Of a DNA stretch of 7,776 nucleotides, positions 1 through 7,776 are shown one piece after another. The notes beneath the pieces are model-generated. The model did not search any database and was not told where the DNA came from. It saw only the letters and a list, made by a program, of their open reading frames with translations. The stretch covers positions 1-7,776 of IMG/VR virus record IMGVR_UViG_2939152649_000004. One strand, 5' to 3'. The translations under genes were made by a program, and so were the position numbers. The stretch's first letter is position 1. The number at the start of each line of letters is the position of its first letter. This DNA is from a virus. Taxonomy: Duplodnaviria; Heunggongvirae; Uroviricota; Caudoviricetes.

Positions 1-276
1 TTACCGACTGCGGCCTGAGTTTTTTAAGTGACGTAAAATCGTGTTGAGGCCAACGCCCATAATGCGGGCTGTTGCCCGGCATCCAACGCCATTCATGGCC
101 ATATCAATGATTTTCTGGTGCGTACCGGGTTGAGAAGCGGTGTAAGTGAACTGCAGTTGCCATGTTTTACGGCAGTGAGAGCAGAGATAGCGCTGATGTC
201 CGGCGGTGCTTTTGCCGTTACGCACCACCCCGTCAGTAGCTGAACAGGAGGGACAGCTGATAGAAACAGAAGCCAC
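1..276 (-). CDS. insA: IS1 InsA (transposition regulator, zinc-finger/HTH protein)
   Basis: 91-aa [46 protein letters not shown]...LKNSGRSR, recognised as canonical IS1 InsA. CxxC...CxxC zinc-finger motif is present. Confidence 0.93.
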
Positions 277-308
277 TGGAGCACCTCAAAAACACCATCA
301 TACACTAA

Positions 309-331
309 ATCAGTAAGTTGGCAGCATCACC
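309..331. repeat. IS1 terminal inverted repeat (left end); IS1/flank junction at 331|332
   Basis: Sequence atcagtaagttggcagcatcacc is the reverse complement of the IS1 end GGTGATGCTGCCAACTTACTGAT. Only one IS end is in the window, so no target-site duplication can be assessed. Confidence 0.8.
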
Positions 332-335
332 AGCA

Positions 336-366
336 GTGACAATATAAAATATAGTCTTAATATTAT
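336..366 (+). promoter_or_regulatory. Candidate sigma70-like promoter upstream of the GGDEF ORF, immediately next to the IS1 end
   Basis: gtgaca at 336..341 (5/6 match to TTGACA) followed 17-19 bp later by overlapping AT-rich hexamers aatatt/tattat at 359..366. By-eye call only. Confidence 0.2.
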
Positions 367-388
367 ACAATACTCGCTGAATCGTCAT

Positions 389-1156
389 TTGTCGACGTGG
401 AATATCGTGTACACCAAAATAATATCAGTATTTTGGCTTGTATTACTTATCAGCTCATGCATCAGCATACGTAATTACTCAAAAATATGGTTGTGTATAA
501 TACTTATTTGTATAGTGTCAGTATGCAATAATCTAATTTTATTGTATTTTATTGATAAATCCCATCCTGCATGGTACATGACAAAATTTCTTGAATTGAT
601 ATCAATGATTTATATCATTTCAACACTCATGTATTATGTTTTCAGGAAATTAAATCATGCTAATCATATGGCAATTCATGATCCACTAACGAATACATAC
701 AATAGAAGATACTTTATTGACTCATTGAAGAATATATCAAAACACCATGATTTCTCAGTAATAATGTTAGATATTGACAATTTCAAAAGCATCAATGACA
801 AATGGGGGCATCATATGGGTGATCAAGTCATAGTAATGGTTACCAGAATAATAAAAAAATCCATCAGGAAAGAGGATATATTAGGGCGCTTAGGCGGTGA
901 GGAGTTCGGTATTATCATTAAAGGTAATACTCAAAAGCTCTTGCTATCAATTGCAGAGCGAATCAGAAAAAACATTGAGGAGCAATGCTCGAAAAAATTA
1001 TTATCGCATGGACCTGAGAAAATAACCGTCAGTATTGGTTGTTTTACTTCAAAAGAGAATAATCTCAGTCCATCTGAAATGTTAGTCAATGCCGATAAAG
1101 CGTTATATCAAGCCAAAAGAACCGGAAAGAACAAGGTGATAACTCACTCAAAATAA
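389..1156 (+). CDS. Membrane-anchored GGDEF-domain diguanylate cyclase (predicted active; I-site present); start codon uncertain
   Basis: 255-aa ORF. Three hydrophobic segments in the N-terminal ~85 aa are followed by a GGDEF domain: HDPLTNTYNRRYF, DIDNFKSINDKWGHHMGD, and RKEDILGRLGGEEFGIII, which carries the GGEEF active-site motif with an RxxD motif five residues upstream. The region is visibly AT-rich. The ORF as listed starts at TTG 389; there is no in-frame ATG before codon 63. Confidence 0.85.
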   Translation: MSTWNIVYTKIISVFWLVLLISSCISIRNYSKIWLCIILICIVSVCNNLILLYFIDKSHPAWYMTKFLELISMIYIISTLMYYVFRKLNHANHMAIHDPLTNTYNRRYFIDSLKNISKHHDFSVIMLDIDNFKSINDKWGHHMGDQVIVMVTRIIKKSIRKEDILGRLGGEEFGIIIKGNTQKLLLSIAERIRKNIEEQCSKKLLSHGPEKITVSIGCFTSKENNLSPSEMLVNADKALYQAKRTGKNKVITHSK

Positions 1157-1185
1157 ACACCTTTTTAAAATACAGCCCCAATAAA

Positions 1186-1218
1186 CTGCAGAATATTATC
1201 CCATATAATATCCTGCAG
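1186..1218 (-). terminator. Imperfect inverted repeat/hairpin between the convergent GGDEF and tfa genes; possible terminator for stf-tfa
   Basis: Arms ctgcagaatattat (1186..1199) and ataatatcctgcag (1205..1218) pair at 13 of 14 positions with a 5-nt loop. On the minus strand the hairpin is followed by TTTATTGGGG. It lies 12 nt past the tfa stop. Confidence 0.35.
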
Positions 1219-1229
1219 TTCGTAATGCA

Positions 1230-1814
1230 CTATTCGATAATGGGTCCTGTTGGCCATTCAATATCCGGTGCAGTTGATGTATCAACACGGTTCAGCAATA
1301 CCCGATACTTTTTCCATGCTTCCAGCAACGAGATTTCTTCCTCCGTTGCAATTTCCAGATCTGCAGCATCCTGAAGCGGCGCAATATGCTCACTGGCTAC
1401 CTGCATCAGGCTGTTTTTTGTTTCTTCCGCCTCCCGGATCCGGAACAGTTTTTCTGCTTCCGTATCCTTCACCCAGGCTGTGCCGTTCCACTTCTGATAT
1501 TCCCCTCCCGGCGATAACCAGGTAACATTTTCCGGTAACGGACCGAGTTCAGAAATAAATAACGCGTCGCCGGAAGCCACGTCATAAACCGTTTTACCCC
1601 GATGATTTTCAACGAGATGCCACGATGCCTCATCACTGTTGAAAACAGCCACGAAGCCTGCCGGAATATCTGGCGGTGCAATATCGATACTGTTTGCTGG
1701 CAGACCTGTATGAGGCGGAATATATGCGTCACCTTCACCAATAAATTCATTAGTTCCGGCCAGCAGATTATAAATTTTTATGGTCCGTGGTTGTTCACTC
1801 ATTCTGAATGCCAT
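1230..1814 (-). CDS. tfa: Tail fibre assembly protein Tfa (lambda-like)
   Basis: 194-aa [34 protein letters not shown]..., recognised as lambda Tfa with matching length. Its ATG overlaps the stf stop as TAATG, the arrangement expected for lambda stf-tfa. Confidence 0.93.
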
Positions 1815-3031
1815 TATGCAAGCCTCACAATATAGTTAAATGCGATGTTTTTGACGGTGTTTTCCGCGTTACCAGCAGCGTTAACGGTGATGGTGTGTCC
1901 ATGTGAGCCAATCGCAACCGAGTGCGTATGAGCACCAATACCCACAGTATGTGCGTGTGCACCTGCGCTTGCAGCAGTACCCGATACAGAGTGCGTATGA
2001 GCGCCTGCAGAAGAAGTGTTAACACTGTATTTAGAATAATCAGATGCTCCACTTCCCGGAGCACCACTGGAACCACCTGAAACAAATGTCATCGAATGGG
2101 TATGTGCACCGGCTGAAGCAGCCGTACCGCTAACACTATGGGTATGCGCACCAGTGTTATTCGTGGATTTAGTGCCGTAATCAAACGACGATGTGGTTTT
2201 CGTCCCCAAATCCGTACTGGATGCGCTGGCGCTGTGGGTGTGCGATTTAATGCCGTCCTGTTCCTGAGACAATACGGCCCGACCACTGGCGGGCTTGCCC
2301 TTAATCATCCAGCCACGCATATCAGGGATCACGCCTGACGGATAAGCCGCTGCAAGTTTCGGGTAAGCAGATTTGTCAAAAGTCTGCCCCTGCATCAGGG
2401 CATAACCAGACGGAACGGTATCCGATGGCCACGGGATTGGTGCGCCAGGCGGATAAAACTGCTCTGATGGCGTATAGAGTGAATAAACTGTACCGTCCGT
2501 TAACCCTTCCGGCTTATTAGCAGAATATGCTGGTGACGTATGAATCGTTACGCTGGCATTACTGGTATAATCCCATTGAATATTTACACCAGTCGCATAA
2601 TTTCCGATTGCAACGTAAATATCGTAAGTATCACCAGATGTATTGACCCAGGCAAAATTTGTAAACCCTGCCGATGTGCGCTGCCATAAAGCACCAGTAA
2701 TCCCCTTCGGATTACCATTACCTGCACGCAAAACAAGTTCAGATATACCTGCCTGTTGAGGTGAACCGACGTTATATCCAGCCCCACCAATCAACGTAAT
2801 TGAAACAACAGAACTCGCCTGCGGCATGGTTACCGTTGCTAATTTGAACCAACCAGCACCACCGCTGAATGACATAGTTGTTGAGTTAAGCGTACCAATA
2901 TCTTTCGGTGTCAGTGTTATATCCGCTGAAAGCGCCTTACCATTCACCTTACGGGCAGAAGGTACCCGAAATCCCCTGAAAGCACAGCGGCTGGCTGAGG
3001 AGATAAATAATAAACGGGGAGCTGTATGCAC
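1814..3031 (-). CDS. stf: Side tail fibre protein Stf, C-terminal portion; probably a 5'-truncated remnant
   Basis: C-terminus ...[31 protein letters not shown] is recognised as lambda-type Stf. It contains the tail-fibre motif [17 protein letters not shown] and repeated GAHTHS His motifs. The ORF opens with a GTG and a basic, non-fibre-like ~30-aa leader, the frame closes at 3050..3052, and no tail genes lie upstream. Confidence 0.8.
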
Positions 3032-3217
3032 AAAGCATCTCCTGTTGAGTTAAGAACGAGCATTGAGATGGCACATAGCCTCGCTCAAATTGGAGTCAGG
3101 TTTGTGCCAATACCAGTAGAAACAGACGAAGAATTTCATACGTTAGCCGCATCCCTTTCACAAAAGCTGGAAATGATGGTGGCGAAAGCAGAAGCAGATG
3201 AGAGAGACCAGGTATGA
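3026..3217 (+). CDS. Small exo-xis-region protein, lambda Orf63-like (63 aa)
   Basis: 63-aa [70 protein letters not shown] lies 4 nt upstream of the ATG. Length and position relative to the TraR-like ORF and xis/int match lambda orf63; identity is by recollection, not alignment. Confidence 0.65.
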
Positions 3218-3293
3218 CAACCACTGAATGCATTTTTCTGGCAGCGGGCTTCATATTCTGTGTGCTTATGCTTGCCGACATGGGACTTGTTCA

Positions 3294-3509
3294 ATGACAC
3301 ATCAGCAGGAAAACGCCCTTCGCAGTATTGCCCGTCAGGCTAATTCTGAAATCAAAAAAGCCAGACAGCAGTTTCCGGATAAAAACGTCGATGACATTTG
3401 CCGTAGCGTACTTAAGAAGCACCGCGAAACGGTAACGCTGATGGGATTCACACCGACTCATTTAAGCCTGGCGATCGGCATGTTAAACGGCGTCTTTAAG
3501 GAACGGTGA
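3294..3509 (+). CDS. Small exo-xis-region protein in the position of lambda orf61 (71 aa from ATG 3294)
   Basis: The ORF track gives 3228..3509, but the internal ATG at 3294 overlaps the stop of an upstream micro-ORF (ATGA-type coupling) and yields MTHQQENALRSIARQANSEIKKARQQFPDKNVDD... Same strand and operon as the orf63-like and TraR-like ORFs. Confidence 0.55.
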   Translation: MTHQQENALRSIARQANSEIKKARQQFPDKNVDDICRSVLKKHRETVTLMGFTPTHLSLAIGMLNGVFKER

Positions 3510-3607
3510 ACATGAAAAGCAAAATCATCAGGGAGCTACAGGTTCCTTTTTTATTGTTCGCATTCATCCTCAAGCGTATTAACCAACAATTCAGGGATTA
3601 ATGGAAG

Positions 3608-3829
3608 ATGGCAGACATCATTGATTCAGCATCAGAAATCGAAGAATTACAGCGCAACACAGCAATAAAAATGCGCCGCCTGAACCACCAGGCTATATCT
3701 GCCACTCATTGTTGTGAGTGTGGCGATCCGATAGATGAACGAAGACGCCTGGTCGTTCAGGGTTGTCGGACTTGTGCAAGTTGCCAGGAGGATCTGGAGC
3801 TTATCAGTAAACAGAGAGGTTCGAAGTGA
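3608..3829 (+). CDS. TraR/DksA-family C4 zinc-finger protein (lambda Orf73-like)
   Basis: 73-aa ORF with CCECG...(17 aa)...CRTCASC, i.e. a CxxC-N17-CxxC zinc ribbon at the C-terminus typical of TraR-like proteins. Length matches lambda orf73 and it sits upstream of xis/int on the same strand. Confidence 0.8.
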   Translation: MADIIDSASEIEELQRNTAIKMRRLNHQAISATHCCECGDPIDERRRLVVQGCRTCASCQEDLELISKQRGSK

Positions 3830-3980
3830 GCGAAATTAACTAGAAGCCAAAGATAAAATCATCGCTGAGCAGGAGAAAATCGCTAACGGAGAAAAGACAG
3901 TAAGTCAGTATATGAAAACCGCATGATATCATCAGATAAAAATCGGTCGTAAAGCGAAATATTAATACCAGAACAAACGA

Positions 3981-4006
3981 GTCGAGGTAAATTATATTAC
4001 CTCGAT
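3981..4006 (-). terminator. Hairpin between the convergent TraR-like gene and the membrane-protein gene; candidate terminator
   Basis: Perfect 8-bp stem cgaggtaa/ttacctcg (3983..3990 with 3997..4004) around loop attata, extendable by a t-a pair and a g.t wobble. The minus-strand side downstream is moderately U-rich. It lies about 35 nt past the stop of the 4040..4642 ORF. Confidence 0.35.
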
Positions 4007-4039
4007 AAATTAACTAAAACTTGCCCGCTATATACTATA

Positions 4040-4642
4040 TCATTCAGTATCATCACGCGCGGTCTGTGCATATGTCACTACCGCACCTAATATATTAATT
4101 TTCTTTTCAACATAGATAATATTATCGTACTCATAATTGCCATACGGATAGCAAATGCGAATATTCTCATGTAGATCGGGGTCATCCACCTCAGCTCCAG
4201 AACAACTTTTTGAACTACCGGAAGTATACCGATACGGTGCAACATAAGACGATGTCTCTCCAGGCAAAAAATAAGTTAGTGTCGTAAGGGGTATAATCAG
4301 AAAAAATCCTGCAAATATGCACATCCCTGCATAAACCTTAAGGTATGCTGACAGACTCTTCCAGCCTCTTTGTTTTACTATCCCCTTCTTAACCCAAAAC
4401 AGAGATAATAGAAAAGCTATTCCCATGCTAAACAGAATGTAATAGTGGGATATACTCTGATTAAGAAACGTGACCCTGTAGATATCTGCCCGCCACCAGA
4501 AGAAAAGGAAAATAAAGATCAGCCCTGAAACTGTCATGCAAATCAAATAAGGATACGAATCTTTTTTCATGTTTAGCGCCCATAAAATTTTTCCTGACCC
4601 GGACAAATTTACCATCCATTTTTTGCGCAGAAAATAGCTCAT
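4040..4642 (-). CDS. Hypothetical integral membrane protein (prophage cargo gene; about 3 TM helices plus a ~70-aa C-terminal domain); start uncertain
   Basis: 200-aa ORF with hydrophobic segments LICMTVSGLIFIFLFFWW, YYILFSMGIAFLLSLFWV and MCIFAGFFLIIPLTTLTYFL, then a hydrophilic Cys/Tyr-containing tail (...CSGAEVDDPDLHENIRICYPYGNYEYDNIIYVEKK...). AT-rich and opposite in orientation to the surrounding operon. Alternative starts at codon 10 or codon 25 (MKKDSYPYL, ATG at 4568..4570). Confidence 0.65.
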   Translation of the reverse strand: MSYFLRKKWMVNLSGSGKILWALNMKKDSYPYLICMTVSGLIFIFLFFWWRADIYRVTFLNQSISHYYILFSMGIAFLLSLFWVKKGIVKQRGWKSLSAYLKVYAGMCIFAGFFLIIPLTTLTYFLPGETSSYVAPYRYTSGSSKSCSGAEVDDPDLHENIRICYPYGNYEYDNIIYVEKKINILGAVVTYAQTARDDTE

Positions 4643-4884
4643 TACTTACTGCACAATAATACACAAAATTGCGTAAATTTTTTGCATGGATTTTAGCTCT
4701 TTCAGCCGACATTTAAGGGGTAAATAGCATTTCCTAAAAGCAACTGCACCAACCCAACAGAATGGGCTACCGCTTACGTTGAGAGCAAAAAAGTGTATAG
4801 CAGCAATGAACAGCATCCTCGCACTGACGAGGATTTCTTTTATCTGAACTCGCTACGGCGGGTTTTGTTTTATGGAGATGATAA

Positions 4885-5052
4885 ATGCACTTCCGAGTCA
4901 CAGGTGAATGGAATGGAGAACCATTCAACAGAGTTATCGAAGCCGAGAACATCAGCGACTGCTATGACCACTGGATGCTGTGGGCGCAGATAGCACATGC
5001 AGACGTAACCAATATTCGAATTGAAGAACTGAAAGAACACCAAGCCGCCTGA
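4885..5052 (+). CDS. Small protein upstream of xis (lambda orf55-like, 55 aa)
   Basis: ATG at 4885 preceded by GGAG at 4874..4877; translation MHFRVTGEWNGEPFNRVIEAENISDCYDHWMLWAQIAHADVTNIRIEELKEHQAA. Not in the ORF track because it is under 60 aa. Position and length match the 55-codon ORF next to xis in lambda. Confidence 0.6.
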   Translation: MHFRVTGEWNGEPFNRVIEAENISDCYDHWMLWAQIAHADVTNIRIEELKEHQAA

Positions 5053-5064
5053 TGGCGGTTTTTT
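5044..5064 (+). terminator. GC-rich hairpin plus T6 run overlapping the orf55 stop; intrinsic-terminator-like
   Basis: gccgcc (5044..5049), loop tgat, ggcggt (5054..5059) gives a 6-bp stem including one G.U pair, followed by tttttt. Function not established. Confidence 0.45.
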
Positions 5065-5065
5065 C

Positions 5066-5105
5066 TTGCGTGTAATTGCGGAGACTTTGCGATGTACTTG
5101 ACACT
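5066..5105 (+). promoter_or_regulatory. pI-type int promoter region with cII-binding box TTGC-N6-TTGC
   Basis: TTGC at 5066..5069 and 5076..5079 separated by 6 bp, immediately upstream of the xis ATG at 5092. In lambda the cII-activated pI promoter sits at the xis start with its transcript beginning inside xis. Confidence 0.55.
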
Positions 5106-5310
5106 TCAGGAGTGGAACGCACGCCAGCGACGCCCAAGAAGCCTTGAAACAGTTCGTCGATGGGTACGCGAGTGCAGGATATTCCCTCCTCCGGTAAAGG
5201 ATGGAAGAGAGTATCTGTTCCACGAATCAGCGGTAAAGGTTGACTTAAATCGACCAGTAACAGGTAGCCTTTTGAAGAGGATCAGAAATGGGAAGAAGGC
5301 GAAGTCATGA
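5092..5310 (+). CDS. xis: Excisionase Xis (lambda)
   Basis: 72-aa ORF MYLTLQEWNARQRRPRSLETVRRWVRECRIFPPPVKDGREYLFHESAVKVDLNRP..., recognised as near-identical to lambda Xis. It overlaps the int start as in lambda. Confidence 0.96.
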   Translation: MYLTLQEWNARQRRPRSLETVRRWVRECRIFPPPVKDGREYLFHESAVKVDLNRPVTGSLLKRIRNGKKAKS

Positions 5311-6358
5311 GCGCCGGGATTTACCCCCTAACCTTTATATAAGAAACAATGGATATTACTGCTACAGGGACCCAAGGACGGGTAAAGAGTTTGGATTAGG
5401 CAGAGACAGGCGAATCGCAATCACTGAAGCCATACAGGCCAACATTGAGTTATTTTCAGGACACAAACACAAGCCTCTGACAGCGAGAATCAACAGTGAT
5501 AATTCCGTTACGTTACATTCATGGCTTGATCGCTACGAAAAAATCCTGGCCAGCAGAGAAATCAAGCAGAAGACACTCATAAATTACATGAGCAAAATTA
5601 AAGCAATAAGGAGGGGTCTGCCTGATGCTCCACTTGAAGACATCACCACAAAAGAAATTGCGGCAATGCTCAATGGATACATAGACGAGGGCAAGGCGGC
5701 GTCAGCCAAGTTAATCAGATCAACACTGAGCGATGCATTCCGAGAGGCAATAGCTGAAGGCCATATAACAACAAACCCTGTCGCTGCCACTCGCGCAGCA
5801 AAATCAGAGGTAAGGAGATCAAGACTTACGGCTGACGAATACCTGAAAATTTATCAAGCAGCAGAATCATCACCATGTTGGCTCAGACTTGCAATGGAAC
5901 TGGCTGTTGTTACCGGGCAACGAGTTGGTGATTTATGCGAAATGAAGTGGTCTGATATCGTAGATGGATATCTTTATGTCGAGCAAAGCAAAACAGGCGT
6001 AAAAATTGCCATCCCAACAACATTGCATGTTGATGCTCTCGGGATATCAATGAAGGAAACACTTGATAAATGCAAAGAGATTCTTGGCGGAGAAACCATA
6101 ATTGCATCTACTCGTCGTGAACCGCTTTCATCCGGCACAGTATCAAGGTATTTTATGCGCGCACGAAAAGCATCAGGTCTTTCCTTCGAAGGGGATCCGC
6201 CTACCTTTCACGAGTTGCGCAGTTTGTCTGCAAGACTCTATGAGAAGCAGATAAGCGATAAGTTTGCTCAACATCTTCTCGGGCATAAGTCGGACACCAT
6301 GGCATCACAGTATCGTGATGACAGAGGCAGGGAGTGGGACAAAATTGAAATCAAATAA
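5288..6358 (+). CDS. int: Tyrosine integrase Int (lambda)
   Basis: 356-aa ORF MGRRRSHERRDLPPNLYIRNNGYYCYRDPRTGKEFGLGRDRR...DKIEIK, recognised as near-identical to lambda Int. The catalytic region includes HELRSLSARLY and the tyrosine in ...MASQYRDDRG. Confidence 0.97.
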   Translation: MGRRRSHERRDLPPNLYIRNNGYYCYRDPRTGKEFGLGRDRRIAITEAIQANIELFSGHKHKPLTARINSDNSVTLHSWLDRYEKILASREIKQKTLINYMSKIKAIRRGLPDAPLEDITTKEIAAMLNGYIDEGKAASAKLIRSTLSDAFREAIAEGHITTNPVAATRAAKSEVRRSRLTADEYLKIYQAAESSPCWLRLAMELAVVTGQRVGDLCEMKWSDIVDGYLYVEQSKTGVKIAIPTTLHVDALGISMKETLDKCKEILGGETIIASTRREPLSSGTVSRYFMRARKASGLSFEGDPPTFHELRSLSARLYEKQISDKFAQHLLGHKSDTMASQYRDDRGREWDKIEIK

Positions 6359-6448
6359 TGATTTTATTTTGACTGATAGTGACCTGTTCGTTGCAACAAA
6401 TTGATAAGCAATGCTTTTTTATAATGCCAACTTAGTATAAAAAAGCAG
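6355..6448 (-). other. attL prophage-host junction: lambda P' arm (Int arm-type sites P'1-P'3, IHF H' site) plus the 15-bp att core
   Basis: Reverse complement reads GCCTGCTTTTTTATACTAAGTTGGCATTATAAAAAAGCATTGCTTATCAATTTGTTGCAACGAACAGGTCACTATCAGTCAAAATAAAATCATTA. Core GCTTTTTTATACTAA is at 6432..6446; arm-type sites are at 6355..6385; IHF-like TATCAATTTGTTG is near 6393..6407. Bacterial B-arm sequence follows the core. Confidence 0.88.
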
Positions 6449-6492
6449 GCTTCAACGGATTCATTTTTCTATTTCATAGCCCGGAGCAACCT

Positions 6493-7776
6493 GTGAACAC
6501 ATTTTCAGTTTCCCGTCTGGCGCTGGCATTGGCTTTTGGCGTGACGCTGACCGCCTGTAGCTCAACCCCGCCCGATCAACGTCCTTCTGATCAAACCGCG
6601 CCTGGTACCTCTTCTCGCCCGATTCTGTCGGCAAAAGAAGCGCAGAATTTCGATGCTCAACACTATTTTGCATCCCTGACACCAGGTGCTGCAGCGTGGA
6701 ATCCTTCCCCGATTACCCTGCCTGCGCAACCTGACTTTGTTGTCGGCCCGGCGGGCACTCAAGGTGTAACGCATACCACGATTCAGGCGGCGGTAGATGC
6801 GGCAATTATCAAGCGTACCAACAAGCGCCAGTATATTGCCGTGATGCCTGGTGAGTATCAGGGAACGGTATATGTCCCTGCCGCTCCGGGTGGAATTACT
6901 CTGTACGGTACAGGTGAAAAACCGATTGATGTGAAGATTGGGCTTTCCCTTGATGGTGGCATGAGCCCTGCCGACTGGCGTCACGACGTCAACCCGCGCG
7001 GCAAATATATGCCAGGTAAACCAGCGTGGTATATGTACGATAGCTGCCAGAGCAAACGCAGCGACAGTATCGGTGTTCTCTGCTCTGCGGTCTTCTGGTC
7101 ACAAAACAATGGCCTGCAACTGCAAAATCTGACCATCGAAAACACGCTGGGCGATAGCGTAGATGCAGGTAACCATCCGGCGGTGGCACTGCGTACTGAT
7201 GGTGACCAGGTACAGATTAACAACGTTAACATTCTCGGTCGTCAGAACACCTTCTTTGTCACCAACAGCGGTGTGCAGAACCGTCTGGAAACGAATCGTC
7301 AGCCGCGTACGCTGGTGACCAACAGCTACATTGAAGGGGATGTGGATATCGTTTCTGGTCGCGGCGCAGTGGTGTTCGATAACACCGAATTCCGCGTGGT
7401 GAACTCACGTACTCAGCAAGAAGCGTATGTGTTTGCACCGGCTACGCTGTCCAACATTTACTACGGTTTCCTCGCCGTAAACAGCCGTTTCAATGCTTTC
7501 GGTGATGGTGTGGCGCAACTGGGCCGCTCGCTGGATGTTGATGCCAATACCAACGGTCAGGTGGTGATCCGTGATAGCGCCATCAACGAAGGTTTTAACA
7601 CGGCTAAACCGTGGGCCGATGCGGTGATCTCTAATCGTCCGTTTGCGGGTAATACCGGCAGCGTAGATGATAACGACGAAATACAGCGCAATCTGAATGA
7701 CACTAACTACAACCGCATGTGGGAATACAATAACCGCGGCGTGGGTAGTAAAGTGGTTGCAGAGGCGAAGAAGTAA
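6493..7776 (+). CDS. ybhC: Host outer-membrane lipoprotein YbhC (pectinesterase-like family, putative acyl-CoA thioesterase)
   Basis: 427-aa ORF from a GTG start with GGAG 6 nt upstream. N-terminus MNTFSVSRLALALAFGVTLTAC carries a lipobox (LTAC). ybhC is the gene flanking att-lambda in E. coli; the complete ORF ends with TAA at 7774..7776. Confidence 0.9.
   Translation: MNTFSVSRLALALAFGVTLTACSSTPPDQRPSDQTAPGTSSRPILSAKEAQNFDAQHYFASLTPGAAAWNPSPITLPAQPDFVVGPAGTQGVTHTTIQAAVDAAIIKRTNKRQYIAVMPGEYQGTVYVPAAPGGITLYGTGEKPIDVKIGLSLDGGMSPADWRHDVNPRGKYMPGKPAWYMYDSCQSKRSDSIGVLCSAVFWSQNNGLQLQNLTIENTLGDSVDAGNHPAVALRTDGDQVQINNVNILGRQNTFFVTNSGVQNRLETNRQPRTLVTNSYIEGDVDIVSGRGAVVFDNTEFRVVNSRTQQEAYVFAPATLSNIYYGFLAVNSRFNAFGDGVAQLGRSLDVDANTNGQVVIRDSAINEGFNTAKPWADAVISNRPFAGNTGSVDDNDEIQRNLNDTNYNRMWEYNNRGVGSKVVAEAKK

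Follow-up and report, generated by a model that had tools for sequence, protein, structure and literature searches.

A 5′-truncated copy of the diguanylate cyclase gene dgcX abutting IS1 in a lambdoid prophage remnant at attB

Introduction

The GGDEF open reading frame (ORF) found near one end of the window analysed here (7,776 nt, positions 1 to 7,776 of the IMG/VR virus record IMGVR_UViG_2939152649_000004) is, with a probability of roughly 0.87, a 5′-truncated, IS1-disrupted copy of dgcX that lies in a 7.3-kb prophage remnant at attB. With the same probability, this copy is a pseudogene that would provide no functional signal-regulated cyclase. Judged by its sequence, the ORF belongs to dgcX, a gene already known from E. 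coli prophages, which encodes a diguanylate cyclase of the MASE4-GGDEF type with 443 aa.

dgcX was described as an extra GGDEF gene in O104:H4, EAEC 55989, HUSEC041, ETEC H10407 and E24377A, inserted at lambda attB beside prophage DNA (Richter et al., 2014, PMC4287979). Its product has an intact A-site, an RxxD I-site five residues upstream and, at its N-terminus, a hydrophobic domain (~270 aa) that is common to YcdT and YeaI, and its expression exceeds that of every other E. coli cyclase gene (PMC4287979). The same authors proposed that dgcX had been hitch-hiking by means of specialised transduction (PMC4287979). Later, DgcX was classed as a MASE4-GGDEF protein, E359A/E360A mutants were made, and GGEEF-dependent phenotypes were reported for the same sequence as the one studied here (Cimdins-Ahne et al., 2023, PMC10459773). 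The gene, its att-lambda location and its role in the biofilm matrix are therefore already published (2014 and 2023). The first-pass annotation of the window had proposed that a prophage-borne cyclase might couple lysogeny to biofilm and motility; the link itself is in the literature, and the idea is not a new one.

The coordinates of the features identified in the window are collected in Table 1.

Table 1. Features of the window, with the evidence for each
Feature	Position	Strand	Basis or remark
IS1 left end	1..331	-	insA 1-276 (both InsA domains, N- and C-terminal, by Pfam); terminal inverted repeat up to 331
dgcX 3′ remnant, codons 170-443 + stop	332..1156	+	DNA identity to L001; Pfam
ORF as delimited in the first-pass annotation, 255 aa, TTG start	389..1156	+	uninterrupted; TTG 389 = L189 of full-length dgcX
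I-site RKED, R348-D351 in full-length numbering	866..877	+	aligns with PleD R359-D362
A-site GGEEF, G357-F361 in full-length numbering	893..907	+	PleD alignment
Hairpin between the dgcX and tfa stop codons	1184..1220	.	RNA folding; terminator role inferred
tfa, tail fibre assembly, 194 aa	1230..1814	-	Pfam Caudo_TAP E = 4e-43; relatives annotated alike
stf (side tail fibre) 3′ remnant, about 380 of ~1,130 codons	1814..2962	-	Pfam Collar, Phage_fiber
stf/DUF1317 deletion joint, joins the 3′ part of the DUF1317 gene	2960..2969	.	homology endpoints
int-proximal early-left lambdoid genes and small ORFs	2963..5091	+	Pfam; annotation in H10407, PK8277, MB06022
DUF1382	3026-3217		within early-left region; Pfam
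TraR/DksA-like gene	3608-3829		within early-left region; Pfam
200-aa membrane ORF	4040-4642	-	within early-left region
xis	5092-5310	+	Pfam Exc E = 4e-41
int, lambda-type	5288-6358	+	Pfam Arm-DNA-bind_1, Phage_integrase
attL core GCTTTTTTATACTAA, lambda P′ arm flanking	6432..6446	-	exact core match
ybhC, host gene on the chromosomal side of attB, pectinesterase family	6493..7776	+	annotation in relatives

IS1 junction and truncation of dgcX

The window begins inside IS1, whose terminal repeat (...GGCAGCATCACC) can be read directly up to base 331; an annotated IS1A copy matches this end at 100% identity and terminates at the same base. The next base, 332, directly abuts the element and is, in frame, the first base of dgcX codon 170. 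From this point, positions 332-1230 are 100% identical (899 nt) to positions 8001-8899 of L001, a contig of E. coli 13C1065T, where the counterpart is a 1,332-nt CDS annotated as ‘sensor domain-containing diguanylate cyclase’ (443 aa) that starts 507 nt farther upstream. Both in L001 and in L041 (described below), the native ATG precedes the point that corresponds to the junction by 507 nt; in the window, IS1 occupies its place. Thus, the dgcX promoter, its start codon and codons 1-169 have been removed or displaced by IS1. No substitution separates the retained 825 nt from full-length alleles encoding 443 aa (100% identity). This indicates that the truncation is recent, which would explain why the GGDEF domain is still intact in sequence.

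When the frame is followed backwards, it extends into the IS1 repeat and reaches an in-frame TAA at 314-316. This stop codon ruled out an ORF fusion reading from IS1 into dgcX, and no start codon was found between it and TTG 389. The TTG is therefore merely the first start-like codon past the IS1 stop and not the native start. It shows no Shine-Dalgarno pairing (anti-Shine-Dalgarno pairing of +0.4 kcal/mol, against -3.3 for GTG 407 and -2.1 for ATG 578), a criterion that is not decisive because pairing at the native start is likewise weak (-3.8 kcal/mol). An exact look-up of the 255-aa product retrieved no gene on record in the collection searched, and none was found for the 405-aa product of the stf remnant. 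A look-up of the 192-aa version that starts at ATG 578 returned only short contigs that either split the gene or end inside it. The first-pass annotation had described a compact cyclase with a short membrane anchor and no sensory domain. Both traits turn out to be artefacts of truncation: with IS1 abutting codon 170, the ‘anchor’ is the end of MASE4, and 169 codons of that sensor have been removed or displaced.

Domain architecture and catalytic residues

The uninterrupted ORF with its GGEEF motif and RKED-x5-GGEEF arrangement, as first reported, was borne out. The Pfam GGDEF model (PF00990) is matched over its full length (1-161 of 161, E = 3e-45), and the RxxD I-site precedes the A-site by five residues (RKED-ILGRL-GGEEF). 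In an alignment with PleD (1w25), residues D316, N324, D333, R355, E359 and K431 of the full-length protein correspond to D327, N335, D344, R366, E370 and K442 of PleD, and the equivalents of PleD R359xxD362 and E370/E371 are also present in the window copy. The sole change at the PleD-equivalent positions is conservative (K435 for R446). A full-length domain, the A-site and the metal- and substrate-binding residues are all present, which places the predicted product in the GGDEF family. With the domain and both motifs undamaged, the sequence alone would be compatible with activity.

The N-terminal part is where the damage lies. MASE4 is matched over model positions 133-237 of 239 in the window and over positions 4-237 in the full-length protein, leaving the last ~105 of the 239 positions. 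According to a crude hydropathy scan, the full protein has ~8 hydrophobic segments, three of them past residue 170. The lost residues 1-169 would therefore hold about five of the eight membrane helices and over half of the sensor domain, including an NDIAIYYLFRQ block that is conserved in DgcX, DgcT and CdgI, and what remains is the last ~3 MASE4 membrane helices together with the whole GGDEF domain.

Identity with DgcX and comparison with other GGDEF proteins

The DgcX identity that the first-pass annotation had suggested proved to be right. It is supported by the 100% DNA identity to full-length alleles, and the link to the published protein is provided by the H10407 copy and by residue numbering (PMC4287979, PMC10459773): the retained protein is 98% identical to that of H10407, differing at 5 of 274 residues, and GGEEF falls at 357-361 in the full-length allele, in agreement with the E359/E360 of PMC10459773. 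Across the whole protein, the H10407 product and the 13C1065T allele differ at 6 of 443 residues, five of which are in the retained part. In the H10407 prophage, the gene order is int...J-lom-stf-tfa, followed by a convergent cyclase gene of 1,332 nt and ybhB.

Published DgcX is a highly expressed protein of 443 aa with a strong native promoter and eight membrane helices (six in another account) (PMC4287979, PMC10459773). The window copy resembles it in near-identity of sequence, in GGEEF at 357-361, in RxxD spacing, in its place by a lambdoid tfa at attB and in low GC, and differs from it in its incomplete MASE4 and in the loss of the native promoter region, the start codon and the first 169 codons, with IS1 at codon 169/170. 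Its GC content is 0.32 (GC3 0.35) in the dgcX segment versus 0.48 in tfa and 0.53 in ybhC, in agreement with the AT-richness noted in the first-pass annotation.

Aligned over both domains, full-length DgcX shares 37% identity with DgcT (YcdT) and 38% with CdgI (YeaI), the other MASE4-GGDEF proteins of E. coli, here from K-12. These two paralogues belong to the chromosomal core and are not carried by prophages, the A-site of CdgI is degenerate (EGEVF), and, unlike them, the window copy keeps only the C-terminal part of MASE4. A closer precedent for the pitfall met here is yneF (dgcF) of E. coli K-12, a GGDEF gene that has lost its 5′ part, carries a mis-annotated start codon and is unexpressed (PMC4287979). 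In yneF, however, the truncation is due to a deletion and not to IS1, the N-terminal domain belongs to another family and there is no I-site.

Prophage context

An exact look-up of the integrase led to L041 (GCA_016661665.1, a draft E. coli contig), which is collinear with window positions 332-7776 over 7,445 bp with 3 mismatches and no gaps. In L041, bioB-bioA-ybhB and the attR core are followed by an intact MASE4-GGDEF gene (443 aa), tfa, the stf remnant as in the window, the same early genes, int, attL and ybhC, with the att cores 7.3 kb apart. On this collinearity, the window is an L041-type 7.3-kb lambdoid remnant plus one IS1 insertion, with a content of dgcX, tfa, stf′ and the genes from DUF1382 through xis and int.

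The window holds int, the attL core and ybhC; attR and the ybhB side were read in the relatives, where the attR core (L001 6839-6853, L005 38775-38789, L041 3883-3897) is flanked every time by ybhB and dgcX. It follows that dgcX belongs to the phage genome, with tfa on one side and attR on the other, which is the lambda b-region position that the first-pass annotation had assigned to it directly after tfa. The same att position argues that dgcX is ordinary phage cargo and not host DNA acquired by specialised transduction. Lambda ea47, ea31 and ea59 and the morons lom and bor are likewise non-essential cargo of atypical composition; dgcX occupies the same place between tfa and att as the lambda b-region genes, and its intact alleles have a promoter of their own. 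There is, however, no sequence relationship between dgcX and any of these genes, and dgcX is read towards tfa.

The two convergent genes, dgcX and tfa, adjoin each other with a gap of 73 bp between their stop codons. This gap contains a 15-bp interrupted hairpin (AACUGCAG.AUAUUAU / AUAAUAU.CUGCAGUU), and folding of the stretch 1150-1235 gave an MFE of -16 kcal/mol (z = -5.3 versus shuffles). The hairpin is probably a bidirectional terminator; a consensus terminator scan did not call it.

Beyond tfa, intact stf genes have 3.4 kb in H10407. In the window, stf homology stops at 2969 and early-region homology begins at 2963; from these endpoints, most of the prophage is judged to be absent at this joint. 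An origin of the joint from an IS3 element, which abuts DUF1317 in MB06022, was considered and ruled out by the differing endpoints. The stf′/DUF1317′ joint recurs in E. coli EC20-4B-2 (L013, about 9600-9760), in another remnant at the DLP12 site (intD, by tRNA-Arg), with the same stf endpoint, 19 more DUF1317 bases and 95% identity over 800 bp. This recurrence suggests that the joint is old and has moved between prophage remnants by recombination.

Two small reading frames of the early-left region deserve mention. The minus-strand membrane ORF between the TraR/DksA-like gene and xis has several hydrophobic segments and 39% GC, is antisense to its neighbours and has no Pfam match. It is kept in many lambdoid prophages at attB, where it is annotated as ‘hypothetical’ (WP_001348592.1), and is shortened to 49 aa in some prophages (L036, L037, L044); it may be a further accessory cargo gene. 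The longest ORF in window positions 3228-3509 has 93 aa. Relatives annotate a product of 93 aa or 71 aa (216 nt) here, named ‘cell division protein ZapA’ in one RefSeq record and hypothetical in others.

Distribution and other broken copies

Among 5,426 complete E. coli genomes, the 5′ part of dgcX (507 nt) was found in 768 and the 3′ part (825 nt) in 769; at a coverage of at least 80%, the counts were 766 and 767. Carriers thus make up about 14% of the complete E. coli genomes and nearly always have both halves, and the near-equal frequency of the two halves indicates that full-length dgcX is the norm. A junction-spanning megablast detected the IS1-dgcX junction in 0 of these 5,426 genomes, plasmids searched by megablast did not share it, and an exact-junction scan of genome contigs, at one genome per species and hence without strain resolution, returned nothing. 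In the complete genomes, no single place covered at least 80% of the whole window. In 50,697 phage records searched by tblastn, no close relative of dgcX was found, the best match having 38% identity and covering the GGDEF domain only. The gene was thus not found in a sequenced viable phage genome; in IMG/VR it is present in prophage-type contigs only.

Other damaged copies were met. In MB06022 (L012 3271-4603), dgcX is annotated as ‘frameshifted’ in a remnant whose remaining sequence matches the window at 100% identity from position 2963 on, and in two short public contigs (L008, L009) its MASE4 and GGDEF parts are annotated as two ORFs. It seems that dgcX has been inactivated repeatedly and independently in some lineages, unless some of these cases are sequencing errors. 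The 4,990-bp draft contig L026 (IMGVR_UViG_2534682092_000018) begins 1 nt upstream of the equivalent of window position 332; its first base is the native A and not the terminal C of IS1, no IS sequence is present in the contig, and its tfa/stf DNA is 97.6% identical to the window. This break hints at a repeat element near the same site in another strain. A 2.5-kb contig labelled ‘MAG: Bacillota bacterium’ (L033, JAEWTL010000008.1) encodes DgcX at 99% identity and is almost certainly a fragment of E. coli mis-binned into a Bacillota MAG.

Discussion

The evidence favours a recently broken allele of a known gene. By abutting codon 170, IS1 has parted the GGDEF part from its native promoter, start codon and residues 1-169. 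Intact alleles elsewhere would make c-di-GMP, be subject to product inhibition through the I-site and favour formation of cellulose and biofilm matrix, as published for DgcX. For the window copy, the activity that the first-pass annotation had predicted is unsupported, given that everything upstream of codon 170, promoter and start codon included, has been removed or displaced. The reading proposed there, of a native compact membrane-anchored cyclase of 255 aa with no sensor domain, draws on an uninterrupted ORF and a permitted start codon and is refuted: the frame continues into the IS1 repeat, everything past 331 corresponds to codon 170 onward of a 443-aa gene, the near-identical locus in L041 has the gene intact, and the exact 255-aa product is absent from the collection searched. 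A different objection is that the junction could be an artefact of assembly or of the window limits and that the strain really has an intact dgcX. IS1 is a multi-copy repeat, and assemblies often break or mis-join at such elements. This nature of IS1 favours a mis-join, and the junction is seen in no complete genome; yet the join coincides precisely with the final base of the IS1 inverted repeat, which is what a genuine transposition end would show, and the contig of another draft genome (L026) starts no more than 1 nt away from this position. An artefact is accordingly considered very unlikely.

Somewhat more room, although still little, is left for the possibility that IS1 made a new gene. 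An outward IS1 promoter, or a hybrid of an IS1 -35 and a -10 in the AT-rich flank, would drive transcription, and translation from TTG 389, GTG 407 or ATG 578 would yield a protein with 1-3 helices, devoid of MASE4 input, that would act as a deregulated cyclase. In favour of this are the intact GGDEF domain, A-site and I-site, a TTGGCA at 318-323 (8 nt from the IS1 end), a promoter-like site GTGACA-16-TAATAT at 336-363, and the Shine-Dalgarno pairing of GTG 407, which is modest (-3.3 kcal/mol) and near that of the native start. In addition, both an outward -35 and an outward promoter have been reported for the ends of IS1 (PMC4287979, citing Prentki 1986). However, there is no good -10 hexamer 16-18 nt from the TTGGCA (the best, CAATAT and AATATA, match at 3 of 6 positions), the promoter scan did not report the TTGGCA site, and promoter-like sites are no commoner than in shuffled sequence (9 observed versus 5.9 +/- 2.4 expected). 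Further, nothing indicates that a stump deprived of five of its eight helices inserts, folds, dimerises or is stable, and the occurrence of the junction in 0 of 5,426 complete genomes gives no sign of selective maintenance. A gene created by IS1 is for these reasons improbable. Slightly less probable again is the specific outcome that IS1 turned a sensor-gated cyclase into a sensor-less, membrane-tethered one making c-di-GMP independently of the MASE4 signal; if true, this conversion would amount to a natural domain-deletion experiment on DgcX.

In conclusion, a disrupted copy of dgcX that is probably a pseudogene carries little weight as a discovery, the gene being known and the allele broken. 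Its interest lies in annotation: a clean 255-aa GGDEF ORF with perfect motifs can be a gene fragment, as here, and this ORF should not be counted as an active cyclase of the strain without expression data. What the comparison adds to published knowledge is that dgcX falls within the limits of the prophage and that it persists in a 7.3-kb remnant after the near-total loss of phage genes.
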